From contig DHFX01000006.1 in assembly GCA_002402455.1 (NCBI GenBank), forward strand, positions 20,408 through 84,407: 64,000 bases of DNA. The letters run 5' to 3'. The stretch's first letter is position 1. Each line of letters starts with the position of its first letter. Shown here piece by piece: positions 28,817 through 61,174 of this stretch. Under the pieces are notes generated by a model. The model had not been told where the DNA came from, searched no databases, and worked only from the letters and a program-made list of their open reading frames with translations. This stretch comes from Candidatus Dojkabacteria bacterium UBA4813 (GTDB lineage Bacteria; Patescibacteriota; Dojkabacteria; SC72). Made by a program: the position numbers and the translations under genes.

Positions 28817-28843
28817 TTAGCAGTTAATTTACTCATTTGCTAA
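28817..28843 (+). promoter_or_regulatory. degenerate CIRCE-like HrcA operator (TTAGCAGTT-N9-ATTTGCTAA)
   Basis: The outer hexamers TTAGCA and TGCTAA are perfect and separated by 15 nt, the same geometry as canonical CIRCE (TTAGCACTC-N9-GAGTGCTAA). It ends 2 nt before the hrcA ATG. A sibling site of identical geometry precedes groES. Confidence 0.45.
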
Positions 28844-32162: not shown

Positions 32163-34493
32163 ATGTTACAAGAATCCACGCAAAATTCTAGAGAAGGAAT
32201 AAATATCTCAACCATACAGAAGTTTCTATTCAAAGGGCTATTATTTTTGCTCCCTCTAACTATTTTCCCCTTCCCTTGGGATTGGACAGAAAGAGGAATG
32301 TCTCTGTTGATACTCTTTGTTTCAACAGTAATCTTGGGTTTAGAGGTTATAAAGCTTCTCTGGGGAGGTACTTTCAGTATTCTAAAGAGTTCAATAGATA
32401 TAGGTTTTTTTCTAATCTTGTTCTCATATTTGTTGTCAACAATCTTCTCAGTAGATATAAACACTAGTCTATGGGGAATCGATGGAAGGTTGGGAAGTGG
32501 ATTAATTGTGTTTATTGCTGTTTTATTAGTAAGTATAGTCGCAAGAGGATTTATAAAAGGGGAAAAAGATGTTCGTTCTCTCATATTTATTTTTTTAATT
32601 GGCTTCTTTATTAATAACGTGTTGAGCTTGTTCTCTTTCTTCGGGTTTAATGTTTGGGGATTTATTCCTGTTTATAAAGACTTATATCAAGCAGGATTGC
32701 CTCTGTTAAGATTTGGAGGTGTCCATCTTCTTGTAAATTTTGTTAGTCTAATTCTTTCTCTAGGACTAATAGGTGAATATCTAATAAGTCAGAAAAGAAA
32801 GGTAGAATTTATAATGTCCATAATTTTTGGACTTTTTTCTGCAATAAATGTCTGGGTATTTTCTATCAATGAGGGTTTGGTAACAATCTCCGTTCTATTA
32901 GTTCTATTGATAGGATTATTGATCCCAGTGCTGAAATTTATAAAAATAGATAAAGAAACCTCGCGTCAGGTATTTCTTCTCTCTTTAATAACTGTTTTTA
33001 TAGTCATTATTCCCGTAATTTTCTTGCAAATTCCGAACATTAGGGAATCTATTTTACCTAAAGATTTAGAGGTAGTTTCCGAGCTTTCTCTCGGATTTGA
33101 CCTTTCTTGGAAGATTTTTGCTTCTACTATTGTTAATGGATTTGTACCGGGATTCTTAGGATATGGTTTGGGAACATATCCGATTGCATATAATAAATTC
33201 AAACCGTTAGATACAGGGCTTCTTTCTTTAGGGGACTCTACTTTTCAAATGGGGGTAAGCGAGGTTCTTACAAAAATTACTACTGGGGGATTTCTGTGGT
33301 TTTTTGTTTGGCTCTTTGTAGGGTTTTTAATAATCAAGTCTTTCATAAAGGATCTTAAGGATGCAAGAGAAATAAATGACACTAGTGGAGCTTGGAGATT
33401 TTTAATAATAGATGTTACATTACTGGTATTATTCGTTGCCTCTTTCTTCTTTTCATTTACTGTTTTAATAACTTTCTTACTACTAACTTTGGTTTCCATC
33501 CGGTCAATAATAAGAGAATATTTAAAGGGTTCTCCTGGGGATAAATTCATATTAAAGTTCTGGGCTGTTAATTTGGATAGTCTATCTAGTGGAAATAAGT
33601 CTTTATACAACTTTAATATTTTTCTGACGGTTATTGTCGCTATCATATCCGTATTTTTACTCGGAGTCTGTTTCACAAAAACAGTATCAAGCTTCCATGT
33701 TTTAGGGGCTGAGGCATACTCGATTAGAGAAAATAGAAAATATCAGGACGATCCGGAGGCTCAGCCAACACTTGAGGAAAGAGAGAAATTTGCGCTAGAG
33801 GTAGATAACTATTATTCTAAGGCTTTAGCTCTAGATGAGGATAACCCTTTTTACAATAGAAAGAAGGCGCTTATTCTACTAGAACAGTTGGGTGTTGTTG
33901 CAGAGGCATACTCTAAGATACCCGAAGAAGATACGGAACAGAGAGACCAATATCTACAAGCAATTATGACTCTTAAGAACAATGCCGTGGAATTCGCAAG
34001 AAAAGCAACAGATATCTCTCCGGCTGTTTATGCTAATTGGCTGACAAGATCAACAGTTTATACTGGTCTGGTGGGAGCAGGTTTTGATGAGCATATATCT
34101 GATGCTATAAATTCATTAGAGATGGCAATAACTCTCAATCCTCTTAACTACCAACTTTACAATACACTTGCCCAAGTTTATATAGTAAAAGGGGATCAAG
34201 CAGTTGCACTACAGTATCTATTAGAAGTTCTTCGTATTAATCCGAGACATATTCCTTCTATACTTCTAGCTGCAGACTTAAGTAAAGAAGCAGAAGATAT
34301 GGAGTCATATGTAGCTTACCTAGAGGCAGCAAAATTGATCCTTGAACAGGAAGAAGCTACGGAACTGGACCTTTACCAAGAAGTACTTACTGCTCTTGAG
34401 GAAGCTGATGCTGGGGATGTAGAATTACCAAAGGAACCTGAAGAAGGTGGGGAGGTAGGGGTACCAGAGCCGGATTCGGAGGTTTCTGAATAG
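32163..34493 (+). CDS. polytopic membrane protein with C-terminal TPR repeats (O-antigen ligase/Wzy_C-like architecture)
   Basis: About 12 TM helices in the first ~500 aa, then TPR-like helical repeats and an acidic tail (EEADAGDVELPKEPEEGGEVGVPEPDSEVSE). The family call is by architecture only. Confidence 0.45.
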   Translation: MLQESTQNSREGINISTIQKFLFKGLLFLLPLTIFPFPWDWTERGMSLLILFVSTVILGLEVIKLLWGGTFSILKSSIDIGFFLILFSYLLSTIFSVDINTSLWGIDGRLGSGLIVFIAVLLVSIVARGFIKGEKDVRSLIFIFLIGFFINNVLSLFSFFGFNVWGFIPVYKDLYQAGLPLLRFGGVHLLVNFVSLILSLGLIGEYLISQKRKVEFIMSIIFGLFSAINVWVFSINEGLVTISVLLVLLIGLLIPVLKFIKIDKETSRQVFLLSLITVFIVIIPVIFLQIPNIRESILPKDLEVVSELSLGFDLSWKIFASTIVNGFVPGFLGYGLGTYPIAYNKFKPLDTGLLSLGDSTFQMGVSEVLTKITTGGFLWFFVWLFVGFLIIKSFIKDLKDAREINDTSGAWRFLIIDVTLLVLFVASFFFSFTVLITFLLLTLVSIRSIIREYLKGSPGDKFILKFWAVNLDSLSSGNKSLYNFNIFLTVIVAIISVFLLGVCFTKTVSSFHVLGAEAYSIRENRKYQDDPEAQPTLEEREKFALEVDNYYSKALALDEDNPFYNRKKALILLEQLGVVAEAYSKIPEEDTEQRDQYLQAIMTLKNNAVEFARKATDISPAVYANWLTRSTVYTGLVGAGFDEHISDAINSLEMAITLNPLNYQLYNTLAQVYIVKGDQAVALQYLLEVLRINPRHIPSILLAADLSKEAEDMESYVAYLEAAKLILEQEEATELDLYQEVLTALEEADAGDVELPKEPEEGGEVGVPEPDSEVSE

Positions 34494-37782: not shown

Positions 37783-37809
37783 TTGGCAATCATTAAATTA
37801 ATCTGCTAA
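37783..37809 (+). promoter_or_regulatory. degenerate CIRCE-like HrcA operator (TTGGCAATC-N9-ATCTGCTAA)
   Basis: Same TTRGCA-N15-TGCTAA geometry as the site upstream of hrcA. Ends 6 nt before the groES ATG. Confidence 0.45.
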
Positions 37810-44364: not shown

Positions 44365-45960
44365 ATGAAGTTAAGCTTTAGAAAGGATTTACATATTGCT
44401 ACTTTAAGATCTGAATCTTCTTGGAATAGATTTAGGGTACAGACGTTGCTTCAAGATACAGAGAGAAAACAGCCATCTATTAATGCTTATCTGGGAGCAA
44501 GATATAGTAGGTCTGCGGATTCCATTTTAGATATAGCCTCTGAGATTATGAGGGAGAGTACGGATGCAGCGGAGAAGTTAGAAAAAATATTCGCAGGTTA
44601 TGGTCACAAATCTGTAGGAGATATGGCAGATCTTTTTGTCTGTTTAGAAAATGTACCAATATATCTTGAAACAAAAATGTTTTATTCTTGTCCGGTAATA
44701 TCTGGGCAAGGTAGGTCTACTAGATACCAGAACTTTCAAGATCCTAACTTCGTCAAAATTCCTAATGAGGTTTGTGATAACCACGAAGTTAGTAGAGAGT
44801 ATGAGAGGATAATGCTAAAGCAGATTAAAGATTACAGGGAGATGCTAGGTCCTACTAGAGATGCCCTTAAAAAATACTTTAGGATAAATGAGGAGAGTAG
44901 TCAGGAGGTTTCTGCTCTAAAGGCAAGGGCATTCGATACTACTAGGTATTTTTTACCGTATGGTTTGAGTACAAGTAGTGCTTATTTAATGTCAGCAAGA
45001 AGTTGGTCTGATGCCATCAGCTTTATGTGTGCAAGTGATACTGTGGTAGAAAATGAGGTTGCAAGTATGCTTCTTAATCTTCTAGGTGAATCTAAACTTA
45101 ATGCAAGGGGTTATATCAGAGAAGCAGATGGACTAATTAGGCATACGGATGCAAATTGTTGTAGAAAAAACTCAACAGAAAGAATTATTGAGTATATGAA
45201 AGAAAGTTTCTCTTCAGAGCAAAAGAGGGAGATTCCTGAGAGTGAAAGTTATTCTGTCAAGGTATCTTATTCTCCCGATTGTATGGAGTCTTTGGTCTCC
45301 CATTATGAATATTTAATAAACCCATTGGGTTCTAAAGAGGAGTTTGAATTCTCTGAGGAGGATCAGGAGAGATTTGGGGAAATAATATTTGAATTACATG
45401 ACCATCATAGCCAGCTTGGGAATATTGGTCAGTCTGGAGCAATAAAGATAGAGGGGTTTGCTTCACTTGGAACGCTAAAAGATCTTAATAGGCATAGGAG
45501 TTTTGAGAGGTTTATTCCTTTTCTACATGAGCAAGTGGATATGGATAAAGAGTTAGACAGGAGGAGTGACCAGTGTTTCTATCTTTGTAATTATTTGGAT
45601 ATAGGGTCTCTTTCTAAGGTTAAGAAGGAGTATATAAAGAGATTATCTGATACGTACGACAGGATAAAGGGTTGGAGGGAGATGGCAAAGCAACATCTTT
45701 CCAAAGAGGTGTGCGATGAATTTACAAAGTATTTGTTACCTCATGCGCATGCAACTAAGTATATATTTTACGGATCGTTCGATGATTTACAATATCTGAT
45801 AAACTTAAGAAGTAGAAATGGTGGACATATCTCTTATAGGGTTTTAGTCTACGAATGGTTAAGGAATCTCAACTATATTGATCCTATTTGGAGACCATTA
45901 TTAAGAAAGATTATAGAGCCAAGAATAGATGACAAGCATCAGTTTGTAGATAGGAGTTAA
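44365..45960 (+). CDS. thyX: flavin-dependent thymidylate synthase-like protein, apparent tandem (double) ThyX domain
   Basis: The first half carries GYGHKSVGDMADLFV...STRYQ, which aligns to the ThyX HGHETPFEH...SGRYS block but lacks the RHR motif. The second half carries NRHRSFERF (RHR) without the S-x-RY block. At 531 aa it is about twice the canonical ThyX length. Confidence 0.5.
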   Translation: MKLSFRKDLHIATLRSESSWNRFRVQTLLQDTERKQPSINAYLGARYSRSADSILDIASEIMRESTDAAEKLEKIFAGYGHKSVGDMADLFVCLENVPIYLETKMFYSCPVISGQGRSTRYQNFQDPNFVKIPNEVCDNHEVSREYERIMLKQIKDYREMLGPTRDALKKYFRINEESSQEVSALKARAFDTTRYFLPYGLSTSSAYLMSARSWSDAISFMCASDTVVENEVASMLLNLLGESKLNARGYIREADGLIRHTDANCCRKNSTERIIEYMKESFSSEQKREIPESESYSVKVSYSPDCMESLVSHYEYLINPLGSKEEFEFSEEDQERFGEIIFELHDHHSQLGNIGQSGAIKIEGFASLGTLKDLNRHRSFERFIPFLHEQVDMDKELDRRSDQCFYLCNYLDIGSLSKVKKEYIKRLSDTYDRIKGWREMAKQHLSKEVCDEFTKYLLPHAHATKYIFYGSFDDLQYLINLRSRNGGHISYRVLVYEWLRNLNYIDPIWRPLLRKIIEPRIDDKHQFVDRS

Positions 45961-46587: not shown

Positions 46588-47730
46588 TTACATTGTTGGA
46601 GGTACGGGAGGGATCTCCTCTGGAGTATTATCTGTATCTTGGTTTTGTTGTGATGTTATTGGTGGCATATGTGGTTGTGGGCGTTCAGGCATGATATTCT
46701 CAGGGGTTTCCTGTTGTGGTGAAACAGAAAATCCTGTAGAGAAAGGAACATTCTGGTTAGGTTGTGGAGCCTGCGGAGTGCTATCTCCCATAGCTGTTGG
46801 AATAGAGGATTCCCTTTGAAGAATTTCCTGCAAATCCTCTTCTTGAGAGGCACTCGAAATTGGGGGGGTATTTTGTTGTGGAGGTGTGTATATGGGTTGT
46901 TCTGGTGTCGGTTGTGTATTTTGACTCATTGGTGTTGGGGGAGTCACTTCTGCTGGTGGTGGTGTGGTCTGTGTCGGTGCACTATTAGGATTATTTACCA
47001 TATCTCTGAGAAATGTTTCACTCTGTTGCTCCGGTTGTATTACGGGAGGAATCTGGTTTTGTTCTGCTTTCTTTACCTTAGGCTGTTTTGGTTCTTTGTC
47101 CTTCCTGAGCAGTAGAACCACTATGCTAATAAGTAAGATTACGGATCCTGCAATTAATATGTATGGTAAGTAGTTAGTTATACTGTCTAGTAAACTTGTT
47201 TTTGTTGTTGTAGTTGGTTGTTCTGTTGTTACAGCTGGAGTCTCCTGTACAGTTGGAGTTTCAGTAGCTGTCGGTTGTGTATCTTCTGTCGTGGATACAG
47301 TATTTGTTTGTTCAAAACTGACGGTTTCTCCCAGAGTAAGGGTACCAAGATCTAAATCGTCGGATTCAACCACTTCAAAAGTTGTAGGGGTATCTCCCGT
47401 GGAGGTAAATGCAATATTAGCCAGTACTCCATTTAGTGCTGTTGCTGAGTCCAATTTACATGTTACCAGTATGGTGTTTACAGTCCCTTGGGATTCGGTA
47501 TAACTTAACTCTGAACAAGCAACATCTCCGTCTGTAACATCCGTTATTTCAACACCGTCTGAATAGCTTATTGGAAGGGTAACACTTTCTAGGGTATCAG
47601 TCTCTGTATCTATCCCAATTGCTACATTCCCAGTTTCACCTTCTCTAAGTGTTATATTTACGGCAGCATATGTTGCGAACGGGAACATAAAGACAATAAA
47701 AGAGACCAAAAGGGAATATATTTTTTTCAT
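46588..47730 (-). CDS. single-pass surface protein: signal peptide, beta-rich ectodomain, Thr/Pro stalk, TM, Pro/Gln-rich cytoplasmic tail
   Basis: MKKIYSLLVSFIVFMFPFATYA signal peptide. A TTEDTQPTATETPTVQETPAVTTEQPTTTT stalk. TM helix LPYILIAGSVILLISIVVLLL. A ~170-aa P/Q/T-rich C-terminus. Confidence 0.5.
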   Translation of the reverse strand: MKKIYSLLVSFIVFMFPFATYAAVNITLREGETGNVAIGIDTETDTLESVTLPISYSDGVEITDVTDGDVACSELSYTESQGTVNTILVTCKLDSATALNGVLANIAFTSTGDTPTTFEVVESDDLDLGTLTLGETVSFEQTNTVSTTEDTQPTATETPTVQETPAVTTEQPTTTTKTSLLDSITNYLPYILIAGSVILLISIVVLLLRKDKEPKQPKVKKAEQNQIPPVIQPEQQSETFLRDMVNNPNSAPTQTTPPPAEVTPPTPMSQNTQPTPEQPIYTPPQQNTPPISSASQEEDLQEILQRESSIPTAMGDSTPQAPQPNQNVPFSTGFSVSPQQETPENIMPERPQPHMPPITSQQNQDTDNTPEEIPPVPPTM

Positions 47731-47860
47731 ATTAAAGGCAGTTTATATTATCTATCTTAAGGTTATCATGCAAAGTTTCTAATATCAATAGTGTGTGGTA
47801 AAAGTTTGACTTAATCGTGTTATAAAGATACACTTTACAAGTATATTAAACTGCCTAAAT

Positions 47861-49093
47861 ATGGAATATTCTAATAATTATAACCAAACAAATCACCCTG
47901 TTGTTAATGACAGTCTTGAGGAGAGTTTAATGGAGGTTAAGGCACTTGAGGTAAAGTTATCCTCTACAAATCTTCCGGAAAAGTTGAGAGAAGAGACAAT
48001 GGTGAGGGTGTCGAGGCTTGGAAGAATGTTTAAATTGGGTGGATATAGTGCAGAATTTGAAACAGTCAGTAAATATATAGACTGGATCACAAGGATTCCT
48101 TGGGGTGTAGTAAGTGAAGACAATTTGGATATCCATAGGGCAAGGGAGGTTATGGATGAAACTCATCATGGAATGGAAACTATTAAGGATTTGATTCTGG
48201 ATTATATTGCAACCATGCAATTACAAAGTGTTGGGGGAGTGGAAAGATTAAGAGGAGACGTTATCCCTTCGCAAGTGCAATATCAGAATAGTATCTCCCA
48301 AGTACCCCATAACAGACCAATTGGGCAAGGAGTTCAAATGGGAGTACTAAAAAGTCATGTGGCTAATGCTCCTGTCTTTCTTTTTCTGGGCTTGCAGGGT
48401 GTAGGAAAGACCTCTATTGCAAGGTCTATAGCTCAGTCTATGGGTAGGAAGTTTTCCCGTATATCTTTAGGGGCTATTGGGGATGTTAGAACACTAAGGG
48501 GAGCACCCCGGTATTCTCCGGATGCTGAACCTGGTCAAATAATTAAGTCTTTGGTTAGGTGCGGAACCATGAATCCGGTGATATTATTGGATGAGATAGA
48601 GAAAGCTAGTGGAAATAAAGGACTTCTTAGTGATATTATGGCTGCACTTCTTGAAATATTAGACCCTGAGCAAAACTCTACATTTGTAGATCACTATATT
48701 GATTATCCGGTAGACCTCTCTAATGTCTTCTTCATATGTACAGCGAATAATTTAGGTGGTCTTTCTGCAGCACTATTGGATCGTGTGGAAGTTATTCGTT
48801 TTACCAGTTACTCTGATCAGGAGAAGGAAGTAATTGGTAAGGAATATATCCTACCCAGAGTTCTTGAAGATCTTAACATATCTCCTGAATATATAAGGAT
48901 AGAGGAGGAGGTGTGGCCGTTGATAATTAGACCTGTTGGGTTTGATGCTGGTATTAGACAGTTAGAAAGGAATATTACAACGATTGTAAGAAGTGCAGCT
49001 AGAATGATTGTTGAAGGGAAGCCACTTCCTATCGTCATAAATAGCTCCAACCTAACCGATTATGTCCTAGCTGATCAGGGACCACTAAGTTAG
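47861..49093 (+). CDS. Lon-family AAA+ ATPase module lacking both the N-terminal substrate domain and the S16 peptidase domain
   Basis: It aligns by eye to E. coli Lon residues ~250-600: YIDWITRIPW, DETHHGMETIKDLILDYIA, Walker A GLQGVGKTS, Walker B ILLDEIEK, LDPEQN, LLDRVEVIRF. The ORF stops exactly where the Lon protease domain would begin, and a convergent gene follows. Confidence 0.7.
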   Translation: MEYSNNYNQTNHPVVNDSLEESLMEVKALEVKLSSTNLPEKLREETMVRVSRLGRMFKLGGYSAEFETVSKYIDWITRIPWGVVSEDNLDIHRAREVMDETHHGMETIKDLILDYIATMQLQSVGGVERLRGDVIPSQVQYQNSISQVPHNRPIGQGVQMGVLKSHVANAPVFLFLGLQGVGKTSIARSIAQSMGRKFSRISLGAIGDVRTLRGAPRYSPDAEPGQIIKSLVRCGTMNPVILLDEIEKASGNKGLLSDIMAALLEILDPEQNSTFVDHYIDYPVDLSNVFFICTANNLGGLSAALLDRVEVIRFTSYSDQEKEVIGKEYILPRVLEDLNISPEYIRIEEEVWPLIIRPVGFDAGIRQLERNITTIVRSAARMIVEGKPLPIVINSSNLTDYVLADQGPLS

Positions 49094-49123: not shown

Positions 49124-49381
49124 TTATATTCCTCTAAATGGATTTGAAAGTCTCAGAGAGTCGGCAGCTTTTCTGACTTTAGAGCTCTCCATCCTTCTAG
49201 GAGTAGTTGATCTGTTTTGTTGCTTCTCTTCCGCTTTTGATAATAGGTAAAGGTCCATTCCTTTCTGGATTGGGTCTATCTTTTGAGGATTAACAGCTTC
49301 TGTTACTAGATAATTAGAGACTTCGACATTGTTATTGTTCGTATTAGAGTTGCTCATTCTTATCCTCCGGATAACTTTCAA
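49124..49381 (-). CDS. small Asn-rich hypothetical protein (85 aa), doubtful
   Basis: Overlaps the 3' end of the VirB4 gene by 38 nt in another frame and is low-complexity (NSNTNNNN). It may not be a real gene. Confidence 0.2.
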   Translation of the reverse strand: MKVIRRIRMSNSNTNNNNVEVSNYLVTEAVNPQKIDPIQKGMDLYLLSKAEEKQQNRSTTPRRMESSKVRKAADSLRLSNPFRGI

Positions 49382-51818
49382 TTAAACCTTGTGGAGTCAG
49401 ATGTTCTTTCCCCTTCTGGATATCTTTGCGAGATTGCACTGCCTGACCGGAGAGGGTGTTACTCTTAATTCTATCTAAGATTCCCTTTTCCATTTCGGTT
49501 TTATCAGGACTTAATTGTTCTTCTTGTTCTTTTAATCTCTTTTCTAGTTCTTTTTGGTATTCTGCTCTCTCCATCTGTATGGTGCTTCTTTGTCCCTGTG
49601 TTCGTTTTACAGCTTCTTCAATAATTTCTTCCTGTCTTGCCATTTCTTCTCCATTTTTCATTGGTCTTTGTTCTGTCGGAGGTTCATATATTTCAGATAA
49701 TTGTTCTAAAGTTCTGGTATCTGGCTGACCCTCTCTTGTTTTAAGCTTTTCTAAATCTCTAGGGTCAGAAGTTATTAATTCATGTTCTGATACGCTGGAC
49801 AGTACTTGAATTCCCACGTGGTTTGAGCCTGCAAAGAAGAGTCCTTGTCCTTGATCACAGTTAAGGAGGAAGTTTTTTTCTCCATCTGAGAGATTAAAGA
49901 CCTCTTGTAGTTTTTCTACTGCTGTTGGACTTTGCATCATGAGCATTTGTATGGAAGAGTTTGAAATTATTGCCTTACCCATGTCATTGTTTAGGAAGTC
50001 CGCAACATCCTGAGTTATTGTGGACAGACCAAGGTAGTATTTCCTTGCTCTTTTTGCTATAGAGTACATAAATTTAGCAGAGTCTTCGGACTGCATCATA
50101 TACCAAGCCTCATCTACTATGAGTAGTCTTCTTTTTCTCTCCTTTCTAATCTTAGTCCAAATGAAGTCTAGCATTAGATACATAGCAAGGGGTTTTAATT
50201 CTTCCTGCAGGTCTCTAACACTAAAGACTGTAAATGGATTGTCTATCTCAAAGTTGCTTGCCTCATTGAAAACTCCGGCACCACTACCAATAATATATTT
50301 TTCCAATCTTCTTGCCAGACCATGTGCTTCTGTTTCTGCCATTCCCTTTAAGACTTTATATAAATCTTCAAGGAGTGGAGGAGTTTTAGTTTGAGTGTTA
50401 GGGTCGAATGTTATTCCTTTCTCACGATATGTGAGTATGAGAGCTCGATCCAGAATAGAGCTCTCAATATTGCTAAGTTCTCCAAGCATAACTTTGAAGA
50501 AACCTTGTAAAGCCAAGAGTTTCATTCTTAATTCATCATCTCCTTCTTCTGTCACACCGGAGAGTTCGAAAGGATTCATTTTATTTCCTTTGTCTTGTGA
50601 GAAGGAGATGTAGGCACCATTAACGGCTTTAGCTAAACTCTCGTACTCCCTTTCTGGGTCAATTATTAATATTTCTGTTCCCAACATTAGACTTCTTACG
50701 GCCTCGAGCTTAACGAAATAGCTCTTACCCGCACCGGATTTTGCAAAGACTACTGTGTTAGCATTTTCTAGTTCAAAGCGATCGAAGATTACCAAACTTC
50801 TGTTGTGTAGGTTTAATCCGTACATAATTCCATGATCCATGGTAAGTTCAGATGTAACAAAGGGAAAAGTTGTTGCGAGAGAAGTAGTATCCATATTTCT
50901 AGTTATGTACATACTATCTAGTCCGAGGGGTTGGCAACTTATGAATCCCTGCTCCTGTTGTAAGGTTGCAGGTTTTGCAGTTACGTTTATTGCGGCTAGA
51001 GTTGATGTGACATTCCTGGAAATTCTCTCAAGAGTATCTTTGTCTTTTGCATAGAGGGTTATATACATTGAGAAGTGGAAAAATTTTTCTGTTCCCTCTG
51101 CAATAGAATCCTGTAACTGCTGAGCATCTGCGAGTGCCACTTTTAGTGAAGGGTCTATAACTTTCCTTTCTTCCATTTGAGAATAAAGGGTAGCTTCCAT
51201 CTCTCCGATTTTCTTTTTGAGTTTTTCTAAAATAGTTTTGTTGTCTACCGGATAATAGAAGGTACTGATTCTTAATGAGTGTTCGAAGTTGATTATGGGG
51301 GAGAGCCAATTAGGACCAACAAATCTTGGGTATCCACTCACAAATAATGTTTTGAAGAAGTAATCTCCTATTTGTAAGTTGTTAAAATCCACTTCTAGGT
51401 CTATTGGGGCAATGATGTCTTGTATAGACATATCCGAAGGAATTAATTTCCTAACACTATGTGGGTCGTTATTTACATATCTGGTTTCCCAAGAACTTTC
51501 TTCTTCAGTTGTTTCTTCTTTAGATTTTTTCTTGTTAGAGTGCCCGAGTAGTTCGGTAACGTTATCCATGACATTTGTGATAATATTCCCTTTTTTCTTT
51601 TTTTCCTCCTCTTCTAGAGATTTTGTATCATTGTATCTGTCCTCCTTTCCCTCGGGGATGTTTTTAGCTTCCTCTTTAAGTTTTGAAACTTCCTGTCGGA
51701 ATGAGGCATACTTTTCACCGGTTGTTTTAAACTTTTCGGTTTGCTGTTCCAACTTTTGAGTTGTCTTTGTTTCCAGTTGTTTGTTGTAGTTGTTGTAGTT
51801 ATTATTTATGCCATCCAT
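49344..51818 (-). CDS. virB4: VirB4/TrbE/CagE-family type IV secretion ATPase
   Basis: Walker A FAKSGAGKSYFVK and Walker B LLIVDEAWYMM. A Gram-positive-type VirB4 N-domain block (GDYFFKTLFVSGYPRFVGPNWLSPIINFEHSLRISTFYYPVD). Preceded by a ~120-aa charged low-complexity N-terminal extension. Confidence 0.85.
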   Translation of the reverse strand: MDGINNNYNNYNKQLETKTTQKLEQQTEKFKTTGEKYASFRQEVSKLKEEAKNIPEGKEDRYNDTKSLEEEEKKKKGNIITNVMDNVTELLGHSNKKKSKEETTEEESSWETRYVNNDPHSVRKLIPSDMSIQDIIAPIDLEVDFNNLQIGDYFFKTLFVSGYPRFVGPNWLSPIINFEHSLRISTFYYPVDNKTILEKLKKKIGEMEATLYSQMEERKVIDPSLKVALADAQQLQDSIAEGTEKFFHFSMYITLYAKDKDTLERISRNVTSTLAAINVTAKPATLQQEQGFISCQPLGLDSMYITRNMDTTSLATTFPFVTSELTMDHGIMYGLNLHNRSLVIFDRFELENANTVVFAKSGAGKSYFVKLEAVRSLMLGTEILIIDPEREYESLAKAVNGAYISFSQDKGNKMNPFELSGVTEEGDDELRMKLLALQGFFKVMLGELSNIESSILDRALILTYREKGITFDPNTQTKTPPLLEDLYKVLKGMAETEAHGLARRLEKYIIGSGAGVFNEASNFEIDNPFTVFSVRDLQEELKPLAMYLMLDFIWTKIRKERKRRLLIVDEAWYMMQSEDSAKFMYSIAKRARKYYLGLSTITQDVADFLNNDMGKAIISNSSIQMLMMQSPTAVEKLQEVFNLSDGEKNFLLNCDQGQGLFFAGSNHVGIQVLSSVSEHELITSDPRDLEKLKTREGQPDTRTLEQLSEIYEPPTEQRPMKNGEEMARQEEIIEEAVKRTQGQRSTIQMERAEYQKELEKRLKEQEEQLSPDKTEMEKGILDRIKSNTLSGQAVQSRKDIQKGKEHLTPQGLIESYPEDKNEQL

Positions 51819-58981: not shown

Positions 58982-59384
58982 AAAAAAGAAAGTTTACATC
59001 TTATCTGTTATGGCACTTTTGTTTCTAGCCTCTGGTCTTTTTTTGTTGTTTTCAAAGGGTGCTGATGAGTTAGAGGTGAAGGGTATAGCTGAAAAGGATT
59101 GTGTCCCATATAATATTTTTGTTATGCCGGGTGAGAATGATTATTCGGTTGATATATCTTGGAAGACGAGGTCTGAATGTCTAGGTTTTGTACTCTATGG
59201 TCAGAATAGAGGTAATTTAGATATGGTCGGGGTTGATCTTGTGAATAAGAGTAGTGCGAGGGATCATAGTGTGACAATTGATGGTCTTCTTAGGAAAGAG
59301 AGATATTATTTCTTAGTAAATTCACAGGATCAAGCTTATGGAGATAATGGCTCGCCTCTAGAATTTGTTATAGAGGATCTTTAA
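58971..59384 (+). CDS. small exported protein with FN3-like domain
   Basis: N-terminal anchor (VYILSVMALLFLASGLFLLF). The FN3-like strand pattern has a conserved W (DISWKTRSE) and Y (ERYYFLVNS). Overlaps the upstream gene by 11 nt. Confidence 0.4.
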   Translation: MPNKKKKVYILSVMALLFLASGLFLLFSKGADELEVKGIAEKDCVPYNIFVMPGENDYSVDISWKTRSECLGFVLYGQNRGNLDMVGVDLVNKSSARDHSVTIDGLLRKERYYFLVNSQDQAYGDNGSPLEFVIEDL

Positions 59385-61174
59385 GATTTCTTTTTCTTGT
59401 TTTTAGATACTTTTCTTACTAGTTTTGTTTCAAAGTACTTTTTGGGTTTGAATATTCTCCATGAGAACACCTCTGCTTCTTTGTAAGGTTGAGAGTTTAT
59501 TAACTTTACCATCATTGCTTGACCCATAGGTCTTGAGTAAATGTACCAACCGACTAGTACGGTAATAATCCCTAAGAGTATTCTTCCGATTACAGAATCG
59601 AAGATTCCTGTCTCGGGTGTTGTTTCAGAATCTGGTTCTTCAACAACTGGAGGAGTTTCCTCACTTGGTTGAGTACAACTTTGTGCTACATTTAGGACAA
59701 GTTCGGCTCTAAGTGTTTCTGGATCAGTTGGTATCTCTGCAGGTGTTATTACCACTTCATTCTGATTTTCTCCTGTTATTGCATCTTCACCTGCTTCCGA
59801 CATAAAGAGTATTGTTAATGATTGACCACTATTTACAGACCAACCTCCCGTTTTCTCCCAAACTATTTCCTGAGTATCTCCAATGTCTGTTATTGTTACA
59901 AATTCCGTGTCTTCTACTTTAACCCCATTTATCTTTGTCGAATCTGCTACGTATGTAAAACCGAGTGGTAGTTTGTCCTTAACTGAATAGATTATTTGAG
60001 CTGTGGTGCTGTCATTAACTGTTTTTAAAGTAAATTCTGCGACATTATTGGGTGTTACTCTTTCAACACAAGTTACATTCGAGGTCTTAGAAACCCTAAA
60101 TTTAGATTCTTGTGCTTGTTGTAATTCTTCGGAGGTAGGCTCTATTTGTGGGAAGTTAAAGGAGGTACTTACAGTACCTATAACTTCTGTGTCTGATCTG
60201 ACTTCCGCTGTTATTTCTATGTTTCCGACTTTTTTATCAAGTTGAGAAAAATTTAGATCGGTACTGAAGTTTTCACTATTATAAAGATCTTGCTCCAGTA
60301 TGGATATCTCACCCTTAGCACTATCTATTGTAAAACCATCTGTCATTGAAAGATCACCAGCCTCTGAATCCTCTAGTTTAAAGGAGAATCTTATTGTTAA
60401 TTGTGTACTATCTTCAATGTTTCCGATTCCTATTTTAATTGTAGAAACTTTGTAAGTGTCTTCAGCCTTTCTAGTTTGGACTTGTATGCTACTAACACTT
60501 GCAGAAGTTGTTTGTTCCACCTCTATAAGTCTTCTACAGATAGGGGAGTTTATTTGATTTGCACTGGCATCTGACGCTGTTGCAAAGATCTCTATGGTTG
60601 AGGTATCTAATTCGGTGTATGTTTTTGTTATGGTTAAGGAGTCTGGGGATATCGAGTCCGGTTGCACCTCTTGATTATTGATTACAAATTTGTGGTCCGT
60701 ATAGACATCGTCGAATTTCGCCTCAATAGTAAGCTCTTTCTCGTTTAGCGGAATTTTCCCTGTAACAATCTTCCCAGAGCTATCCTTTATTGTCATTTCG
60801 GTACATCTGCTATCTTGTACCACTGGTATAGTACAGATCTGGTAGAGGGCTTGCTGTGTTGTGCTGTTCAGTAGATTTGTTGAAAGGTTGTCAACAGAAC
60901 AAGGTGCACTACAAGTTTGGTCGCTAGGGACAGTATTTAATTCGAAGGAAAAACCTCTTCTAGGATCTCCACATTCTGGTACAACTTCTGGATCGATGTA
61001 ATAACAGGCACAGGTTGTCTCTGTTACGATTTGTTCTTTTGCTGGTTCTTCAAGGGTATAAAAATAAACTGCTGAGACAATAAGCCCTATGCCTAGAATA
61101 GCGGCGATTATGATTAATAAAGTAGTACTTTTTTTCTTTTCACTTGTGGTGGGAATCCTTCTAACTTCTTCCAT
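59381..61174 (-). CDS. large surface protein with N- and C-terminal TM anchors, Cys-rich module and DUF11-like repeat
   Basis: N-terminal signal anchor, a Cys-rich stretch (TTCACYYIDPEVVPECGDP...CSAPCS) and a DUF11-type motif (KDKLPLGFTYVADSTKINGV). A C-terminal TM helix is followed by a basic tail (KVSKNKKKKS). Confidence 0.5.
   Translation of the reverse strand: MEEVRRIPTTSEKKKSTTLLIIIAAILGIGLIVSAVYFYTLEEPAKEQIVTETTCACYYIDPEVVPECGDPRRGFSFELNTVPSDQTCSAPCSVDNLSTNLLNSTTQQALYQICTIPVVQDSRCTEMTIKDSSGKIVTGKIPLNEKELTIEAKFDDVYTDHKFVINNQEVQPDSISPDSLTITKTYTELDTSTIEIFATASDASANQINSPICRRLIEVEQTTSASVSSIQVQTRKAEDTYKVSTIKIGIGNIEDSTQLTIRFSFKLEDSEAGDLSMTDGFTIDSAKGEISILEQDLYNSENFSTDLNFSQLDKKVGNIEITAEVRSDTEVIGTVSTSFNFPQIEPTSEELQQAQESKFRVSKTSNVTCVERVTPNNVAEFTLKTVNDSTTAQIIYSVKDKLPLGFTYVADSTKINGVKVEDTEFVTITDIGDTQEIVWEKTGGWSVNSGQSLTILFMSEAGEDAITGENQNEVVITPAEIPTDPETLRAELVLNVAQSCTQPSEETPPVVEEPDSETTPETGIFDSVIGRILLGIITVLVGWYIYSRPMGQAMMVKLINSQPYKEAEVFSWRIFKPKKYFETKLVRKVSKNKKKKS

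Follow-up and report, generated by a model that had tools for sequence, protein, structure and literature searches.

On a 64,000-nucleotide stretch of the genome of Candidatus Dojkabacteria bacterium UBA4813 (GenBank assembly GCA_002402455.1, contig DHFX01000006.1, positions 20,408 to 84,407 of the forward strand; hereafter the window), a complete gene of 410 codons encodes the motor of the Lon protease and none of its peptidase. We call this gene, and the family to which it belongs, short Lon. It is almost certainly functional, and neither a protease nor a pseudogene; on balance we also consider it probable that its product is a vertically inherited, stand-alone ATPase derived from LonA, acting as a non-proteolytic remodeller of other proteins. 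The evidence comes from the domain content of the protein, the conservation of its truncated form across related genomes, the retention of its catalytic residues and the remodelling of the loops that line its predicted pore.

The resemblance of the open reading frame (ORF) to Lon is far above chance, and it is sharply bounded. Pfam recognises an AAA domain (residues 174-315) and a Lon_lid (residues 340-387; 34.8 bits, cut-off 27) in the 410-residue protein and finds no match there to LON_substr_bdg (PF02190) or Lon_C (PF05362), while the match to TIGR00763 (lon, endopeptidase La; E = 3.9e-93) is confined to positions 255-567 of a 795-position model. Its score of 313.4 bits against an equivalog cut-off of 608.05 lies below the level of a whole Lon, and NF008053 is matched at 225.5 bits against a cut-off of 891; ClpA (40 bits) and ClpB (27 bits) appear in the family scan as weak, generic matches. 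Sequence matches in the PDB are LonA structures (3M6A from Bacillus subtilis, 7YPH and 7FD4 from Meiothermus, and human LONP1) and fall into two blocks, the first (query residues 24-122) corresponding to the three-helix bundle and the second (170-402) to the AAA+ domain and lid. Past the lid only 8 residues remain, and reading through the TAG stop would add just 16 codons; at the other end, the closest orthologue (L001) has an in-frame stop 4 codons 5' of the ATG, and an N-terminal MEYSNNY/MDY motif is kept in the family alignment. An earlier reading, made from the letters of the window without database searches (the sequence-only reading), had described the ORF as the middle of Lon, starting some 250 residues in and stopping at the junction between the AAA and protease domains, with a Walker A of GLQGVGKTS, intact Walker A/B and sensor motifs, and a convergent gene in the space where the S16 peptidase domain would lie. 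The profile match, the alignment and the position of the stop bear this description out, and the convergent space is taken up first by a 77-residue minus-strand gene and then by a VirB4/TraC-like gene. The insertion that the same reading saw ahead of Walker A is also real, at about 47 residues (~123-169) and not the ~35 proposed.

Structure prediction agrees with this outline. The AlphaFold2 model, built on a 39-sequence alignment (mean predicted local distance difference test score, pLDDT, 73; predicted template modelling score 0.64), shows an alpha/beta AAA+ domain between a helical bundle and a helical lid. Top Foldseek matches against the PDB are all Lon, with E values of ~1e-26 to 1e-23 and query-normalised TM-scores of 0.65-0.70 over ~380 columns, and the target-normalised TM-score to 6N2I, the EcLon(235-584) fragment of Escherichia coli Lon (EcLon), is 0.80.

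The truncated form is present in every related locus examined. Homologues were taken at two scales: the best 120 matches in a collection of 5.8 billion proteins, and the 80 best loci from a scan of one genome per species, for which ORFs were reconstructed. All of the best 120 proteins share one common Pfam set, without Lon_C, at identities down to 63%; 117 of them measure 382-425 residues with coverage of 95-100% (the other three, 313-365 residues and 76-89%), and those with an organism name are mostly labelled "AAA family ATPase [Candidatus Dojkabacteria bacterium]". Among the 80 best loci, 46 are short ORFs of 347-472 residues, at identities down to 36%, each starting just 5' of the three-helix bundle and stopping just after the lid. 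These short-form loci are L001-L044 without L027, which runs off its contig, together with L048 and L070, and they span Dojkabacteria and Microgenomates-type members of the candidate phyla radiation (CPR). The reconstructed loci from L045 on hold full-length Lons of 684-908 codons, stop to stop, from other phyla (L050 and L074, cut by contig ends, are excepted). Against L001, at 88% identity, the ratio of non-synonymous to synonymous substitution rates (dN/dS) is 0.062, beside 0.064 for the neighbouring SHMT gene, 0.039 for LepA and 0.036 for Dcd: short Lon is under strong purifying selection.

Nor has the missing part left a trace. With the S16 and N domains of five full-length Lons from the fetched loci as queries, tblastn found no S16 remnant in any frame of the window (best E 2.7) or of the 46 short-form loci with flanks of up to 10 kb (best E 0.085), and no N-domain remnant in either, the matches to the N region being to the three-helix bundle only. 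The identical protein occurs on four independently assembled contigs, and the three that were shown (ENA, JGI and Logan) agree on the gene boundaries and on the 77-residue gene downstream. The sequence-only reading had suggested searching the flanking DNA for S16 and examining the conservation and dN/dS of the truncated form; both checks leave the short gene standing. One locus departs in detail: at L032:9977-11340 (Woykebacteria RBG_16_39_9b) a 363-residue short Lon ORF is followed, with a 19-nt overlap, by a 100-residue ORF that also matches the family, an arrangement for which a frameshift, a sequencing error or partial duplication might be responsible.

When aligned with 32 full-length Lons, the short forms are monophyletic in 200 of 200 neighbour-joining bootstraps and, because of this, loss of the protease appears to have happened once, long ago, and to have been followed by diversification into about 20 protease-less clusters (at 50% identity) and not by repeated truncation. 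Motif and architecture go together: among 50%-identity representatives of less than 700 residues, those that bear S16, or that are of ordinary length or fragments, have GPPG or a near variant in Walker A and a near-canonical pore loop (typically RGHRRTY[IV]GA.PGR), and those without S16 by Pfam, or ending just past the lid, have both motifs altered. Relatives of intermediate length, such as P0230, P0198 and P0270, were considered as evolutionary intermediates and rejected; they have no N domain, yet they carry S16 and fully canonical Lon motifs, and are most likely ordinary Lons or gene fragments. Some relatives carry additional low-complexity stretches, at an end of the protein or (P0131) inside the linker, with no added domain. 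Separately, two Lon relatives, P0123 (1113 residues; 3 AAA, 3 Lon_lid, 1 Lon_C) and P0125 (997 residues), have two or three tandem AAA+/Lon_lid modules followed by a single S16, an architecture that P0124, P0126 and P0128-P0130 probably share; these could represent unusual multi-ring machines or possibly fused gene calls.

What survives of Lon in this family looks like a working motor. Residue counts refer to an alignment of the window protein with 45 other short forms (46 sequences) and with 5, later 32, full-length Lons. The Walker A residues G177, G180, G182, K183 and T184 are each present in 46 of 46 short forms, as are D244 and E245 of Walker B, N296 of sensor 1, the trans-acting arginine finger R308 and R366 of sensor 2. 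The scaffold around them is nearly as constant: Y279 (45/46) and D281 (46/46) are the equivalents of EcLon Y456 and E458 in the pre-sensor-1 beta-hairpin, and Y72 (44/46) and W75 (43/46) are those of EcLon Y294 and W297 in the three-helix bundle, on which Y456 and E458 pack in the E. coli enzyme (PMC7239648). Every hallmark of a Lon-type AAA+ module (HCLR clade) that can be looked for in a sequence is present, and the catalytic residues of the predicted ATPase, the trans-acting arginine finger included, are fully retained. Walker A itself has nevertheless acquired a signature of its own, in which the first proline position is L, I or V in 45 of 46 short forms and the second Q, V or A in 44, as against two prolines in all full Lons.

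The pore is where the family parts company with Lon. In EcLon, the Tyr-Ile pair of pore loop 1 (Y398/I399) grips the translocating polypeptide (PMC7239648), and the equivalents of Y398, I399, R395 and G400 are found in all 32 full Lons, within the consensus RGHRRT-Y-[IV]-GAMPGR. The window protein has RGAPRYSPDAEPGQ in its place, with S219 in the Tyr column and P220 in the Ile/Val column by both HMMER and MAFFT. Over the 46 short forms the Tyr column holds S (12), E (8), F (5), H (5), N (4), Y (3) and others, so that it is aromatic in only 8, the column being Y in 32 of 32 full Lons; the R395 equivalent is retained in none of the 46, the I399 column is variable, and the G400 column is G in 6 and D or E (residue 221) in 36. 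Further along, the Met after the G400 column has become Glu (E223) in 44 and the closing Arg has become Gln (Q226) in 38, which together define a family-specific acidic pore-loop motif, [DE]-A-E-P-G-Q (DAEPGQ in the window protein). Pore loop 2 is changed as well, the RGDP of Lon being replaced, by NKGLLSD in the window protein. The sequence-only reading had offered a stand-alone Lon-derived ATPase, perhaps an unfoldase or chaperone, as one of two possibilities; the stand-alone ATPase is supported, and the unfoldase is doubtful because the Tyr-Ile/Val pair of pore loop 1 is not conserved.

Other features are less constant. The linker of about 47 residues (123-169) that separates the bundle from the AAA+ domain is ~40 residues longer than in most Lons and has no counterpart in the structure matches. 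In the short family this Q/P/S-rich stretch, which prediction shows as disordered, measures anything between 0 and ~100 residues, and a comparable linker is present in the full-length Lon of L049; being so variable, and being found in a full-length Lon too, it is not a defining feature of the family, and we rejected it as a functional module. C-terminal tails are conserved within each clade: DQGPLS-stop in L001-L017, P0121 and P0122, and G[VI]YS or LP[QT]W in others. The protein core is acidic (pI 5.2; short family median 5.6), and the lid has a pI of ~7.3 against 9.1-10.3 in real Lons, a charge distribution that does not support nucleic-acid binding through a basic lid.

As we picture its action, on the strength of the conserved arginine finger and of the packing of EcLon(235-584), short Lon would form an ATP-hydrolysing ring, most probably of six subunits. 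Such a ring would feed no degradation chamber and would present no conserved aromatic-hydrophobic pore loop, and it would probably not thread polypeptides processively, because the residues that grip them are not conserved. Nucleotide-driven conformational cycling would more likely serve to remodel particular client proteins or complexes, or to bind and release them, with the protein acting in a chaperone-like role or as an assembly or disassembly factor whose pore would be lined by the acidic [DE]-A-E-P-G-Q motif.

Several points weigh against this proposal. Oligomerisation and ATP hydrolysis are both deduced from sequence. The protease (P) domain and N region of LonA are reported to contribute to the stability of its oligomer (PMC6722904), and a ring that lacks them is therefore not guaranteed; the precedent for one, EcLon(235-584), forms an open helical hexamer with ADP bound (PMC6722904), but that "hexamer" is a crystallographic 6(1) helix. 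The window's own clade (10 of the 46 sequences) has a tyrosine, Y218, one position early in pore loop 1, which could still contact substrate, and a hydrophobic G-L-L in pore loop 2. Finally, the CIRCE-like repeat TT[AG]GCA-N15-TGCTAA, found by eye and, in the window, only at hrcA (28817-28843) and groES (37783-37809), does not occur at 47731-47860, upstream of short Lon, and there is therefore no regulatory link from this quarter to the heat-shock regulon.

Of the other explanations, the one that survives best makes short Lon an accessory factor of RNA-degradation or ribosome-associated machinery, one that would, for example, remodel PNPase/RNase J complexes or their substrates. In about 11 loci at 37-51% identity, from Microgenomates-type and deep Dojkabacteria genomes, the gene stands in a co-directional string, after rpsO (ribosomal protein S15) and the PNPase gene and before those of RNase J and FtsK; where neighbours adjoin, ~14-57 nt separate short Lon from the gene upstream and 18-120 nt from the one downstream, a small ORF is interposed in three loci, and the titles include Dojkabacteria (L028), Shapirobacteria and Gottesmanbacteria. 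In another clade, ribosomal protein L25/Ctc is encoded directly upstream in 8 loci (L018, L020-L023, L025, L031 and L048). However, the order rpsO-pnp ... rnj-ftsK is itself ancient and conserved among related phyla, and for that reason it may be inherited and not functional. On this explanation the window's clade would have relocated the gene; the window has no pnp, rnj or rpsO, its L25 gene lies 19 kb from short Lon, and the acidic core and less basic lid argue against direct binding of nucleic acid. We regard this explanation as improbable in its own right, and note that it can be accommodated within the remodeller model as an identity for the clients; gene order is here a lead to RNA-turnover or ribosome-associated clients and not evidence for them.

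By analogy with HslU-HslV, ClpX-ClpP and PAN-20S, the short Lon ring might instead be one half of a split protease, docking through its C-terminal tail on a separate peptidase, whether S16 or another self-compartmentalised enzyme. Intact ATPase residues and tails conserved per clade directly after the lid (DQGPLS, G[VI]YS, LP[QT]W) would suit such an arrangement, and the G-V-Y-S tail resembles what we take to be a hydrophobic-Tyr-X docking motif, a likeness that is a lead only. Yet tblastn found no S16 in the 64-kb window or within 10 kb of the gene in the 46 loci; in no clade does a peptidase family keep turning up beside it; the tails differ between clades; and the aromatic loop that a pore requires to thread substrates into a chamber is not conserved. 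A split protease is accordingly a rather unlikely explanation. Less likely again is that short Lon acts as a regulatory paralogue, modulating a full-length canonical Lon from another part of the genome by joining its assemblies or by competing with it. Such a role would account for the retention of features relevant to oligomerisation (the arginine finger, the three-helix bundle, and Y279 and D281 of the pre-sensor-1 hairpin), but the 80 best loci include no CPR-titled full-length Lon, their full-length members coming from other phyla, and the depth of the family's divergence (36-42% identity to any Lon), with conserved motifs of its own, suggests an independent function. Least credible of all, and in our view refuted, is the decaying lon pseudogene entertained by the sequence-only reading, or the assembly or gene-calling artefact at 49.1 kb that might mimic one, since beyond a truncated look relative to LonA nothing speaks for either, and they run up against a dN/dS of 0.062, an intact ORF whose start and stop are kept in 46 species-level genomes and the best 120 homologues, a flank free of remnants in any frame in which read-through gains only 16 codons, and identical boundaries with the same 77-residue neighbour in the ENA, JGI and Logan assemblies, across whose different samples and assemblers a shared systematic error is implausible.

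Table 1. Coordinates of short Lon, its parts and its neighbours (window positions unless a locus is given)
Feature	Position	Strand	Basis or remark
Short Lon-derived AAA+ ATPase gene, complete	47861..49093	+	410 aa, ATG to TAG; Pfam, TIGR00763 and PDB matches
N-terminal tail, residues 1-23, variable, low-complexity	47861..47929	+	Alignment; pLDDT <50 at 1-14; stands in place of the ~250-aa Lon N domain and coiled coil
Three-helix bundle (NTD3H, C-terminal part of LonA HI(CC) domain), residues 24-122	47930..48226	+	HMMER block to BsLon and MtaLon; helices in model
Hypervariable Q/P/S-rich linker, residues 123-169	48227..48367	+	0 to ~100 aa across short family; pLDDT <50 at 128-169
AAA+ alpha/beta (nucleotide-binding) domain, residues 170-315	48368..48805	+	Pfam AAA 174-315; Foldseek LonA/LONP1
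Walker A GLQGVGKTS, residues 177-185	48389..48415	+	G..G.GKT core intact; GPPG replaced by GLQG
Pore-loop-1 region RGAPRYSPDAEPGQ, residues 213-226	48497..48538	+	Same register in HMMER and MAFFT
Walker B ILLDEIEK, residues 241-248 (D244, E245)	48581..48604	+	D and E in 46/46
Sensor-1 Asn296 (EcLon N473)	48746..48748	+	46/46; EcLon numbering from PMC9569914
Arginine finger R308 (EcLon R484)	48782..48784	+	46/46
Lon-type lid (small alpha-helical domain), residues 316-402	48806..49066	+	Pfam Lon_lid 340-387; lid-only PDB matches 4GIT, 1X37, 1QZM
Sensor-2 R366, within lid	48956-48958	+	46/46
C-terminal tail LADQGPLS, residues 403-410, plus TAG stop	49067..49093	+	Protein end at AAA/protease junction of Lon
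77-aa conserved gene, no family assignment	49124..49357	-	36-77% identity in L001-L009 and L014 (tblastn); called in three other assemblies
VirB4/TraC-like ATPase gene, convergent	49344..51818	-	Pfam P-loop_TraG, AAA_10, TraC_F_IV
rpsO-pnp-short Lon-RNase J-FtsK string	L026, L028, L033-L037, L039, L040, L042, L044 (e.g. L035:2754-6065)		

The surroundings of the gene (Table 1) are those of a low-GC (~36%) chromosome segment with mostly housekeeping functions, among them LeuRS, MetRS, RpoD, DnaG, FtsK, hrcA-grpE-dnaK, groES/EL, MurJ, SHMT, ThyX, Dcd, RecF, LepA and the DNA polymerase III delta subunit. No protease gene is found among its scanned ORFs, and tblastn detects no second Lon in the window. 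Directly downstream, the 77-residue gene begins 30 nt beyond the short Lon stop, shares 14 nt with the 3' end of the VirB4-like gene and is probably part of an operon resembling a type IV secretion system (T4SS). The sequence-only reading had remarked on the T4SS-like neighbours; they are there in the window, convergent with short Lon, and the adjacency to VirB4-like and PrgI-like genes is kept in L001-L017 (at least 58% identity) wherever the contig reaches, but only in that clade, where in most loci the surrounding ~20 kb is collinear too, and it is gone in all deeper relatives. Being retained only where the whole neighbourhood is collinear, the linkage is silent on function, and we set it aside as evidence. 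Membership of an anti-phage defence system was likewise rejected, PADLOC giving only weak, generic AAA+ matches (DolB 41 bits, TRIP13 18 bits) in what is a housekeeping neighbourhood.

Scans for promoters and terminators at short Lon gave nothing above background. Canonical CIRCE (TTAGCACTC-N9-GAGTGCTAA, up to 3 mismatches) has no match anywhere in the window. The CIRCE-like repeats at hrcA and groES lie just downstream of promoter-like TTGACA/TTGAAG ... GTGATACA[AT]T elements; the 64 kb hold just these two, each at a gene where an operator is expected, and they may be this lineage's variant of the HrcA operator.

Four further ORFs of the window deserve a mention in their own right. At 44365-45960 (+) lies a ThyX-like protein of 531 residues with two Thy1 stretches, about twice the usual length of ThyX; the long form is kept in L001-L013 (93% identity in L001) and may have arisen by duplication or fusion of a flavin-dependent thymidylate synthase. 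The gene divergent from short Lon on its upstream side (46588-47730, -) encodes 380 residues with a signal peptide and a transmembrane segment, is rich in Pro, Thr and Gln and has no Pfam match; its dN/dS of 0.16, against 0.02-0.08 for its neighbours, would fit a surface protein under relaxed or diversifying selection. Two uncharacterised CPR proteins are encoded by a 597-residue ORF with no Pfam match (59381-61174, -) and a 776-residue ORF with weak, sub-threshold TPR matches (32163-34493, +).

Organism labels of the metagenome-assembled genomes from which the related loci come look unreliable, with record titles in conflict with gene content and synteny. L002, L004, L008-L010 and L012-L014 are titled 'uncultured Candidatus Saccharibacteria' and L015 'Nomurabacteria', and over 20 kb the gene order of L002-L014 follows that of the Dojkabacteria window. 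Likewise, L033, L035-L037, L039, L042 and L044 are titled 'uncultured Gammaproteobacteria'; L033 is near-identical to L034 (Shapirobacteria), and the other loci of that title share the gene order of L033 and the motifs of the family.

Short Lon matters in the first place as an old and diversified clade in which only the Lon motor survives, maintained in some of the smallest bacterial genomes known by selection as strong as that on core metabolism. It is a natural separation of the Lon ATPase from its protease, through which the proposed chaperone-like activity of Lon becomes testable alone, and it shows which pore-loop features a Lon motor can do without when it need not translocate substrates into a chamber. 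There is a practical consequence too. Annotation pipelines differ on these genes: NCBI has "AAA family ATPase", whereas the JGI name, "ATP-dependent Lon protease", is wrong, and through it reconstructions of CPR proteostasis would assign to the organisms a Lon protease that they may not have. A bolder proposition, which we hold to be unlikely as yet, is that in Dojkabacteria and Microgenomates-type CPR bacteria canonical Lon has been replaced outright by a protease-free ring with an acidic, non-aromatic pore loop, acting on specific and possibly basic clients. If true, this would define a new functional class of Lon-derived AAA+ machine, devoted to specific clients over bulk protein quality control, for example those of the PNPase/RNase J RNA-turnover or ribosome-associated machinery.

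Set beside known systems, short Lon is closest to LonA (MEROPS S16.001; 3M6A from B. subtilis, 4YPL/7FD4 from M. taiwanensis, 6U5Z from E. coli and human LONP1), with which it shares the bundle, AAA+ domain and lid at 35-43% identity and the Walker A/B, sensor-1, arginine-finger and sensor-2 residues, together with the pre-sensor-1 beta-hairpin (EILDPEQN...DHY.D) and its Tyr/Trp partners. It differs in having no LON N domain, coiled coil or S16 Ser-Lys peptidase, in a Walker A of G[LIV][QVA]G where LonA has GPPG, in a less basic lid, and in a pore loop 1 where R395, Y398, I399 and G400 have given way to a variable stretch and the acidic DAEPGQ. With neither S16 nor N domain, a profile score below the cut-off and no canonical pore loop, it falls outside the Lon protease family; the recognised classes are LonA, LonB, LonC and LonBA, and all Lons are said to hold both ATPase and protease domains (PMC9569914). 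Our search of the literature, which was incomplete in coverage and whose silence is absence of evidence only, turned up no account of Lon in CPR bacteria, nor of any natural Lon that lacks its protease, and the family, robust as it is, is apparently undescribed.

Single-gene AAA+ rings without a covalent peptidase are familiar from HslU, ClpX and ClpB, which belong to the same AAA+ clade as Lon (HCLR). All three keep the aromatic pore loop; for docking, ClpX has its IGF loop and HslU its C-terminal tail, and ClpB has an M domain and two AAA+ rings. None of these features, neither the aromatic pore loop nor dedicated docking elements, an M domain or a second ring, was found in short Lon. Among Lon derivatives themselves, LonC (Lon-like-Ms) is reported to keep its protease and to have no ATP-powered unfolding activity (PMC3391209); it too is a natural Lon derivative that has given up one activity, its loss being the reciprocal of the one seen here. 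The nearest counterpart was made in the laboratory: EcLon(235-584) has near-identical boundaries, running from the bundle through the AAA+ module to the linker of the P domain. That fragment is a truncation of a protease and retains canonical pore loops, whereas the CPR protein is natural and under selection, its pore loops are remodelled, its linker is long and disordered, and its C-terminal tail is conserved. Short Lon is thus the natural equivalent of the engineered EcLon(235-584).

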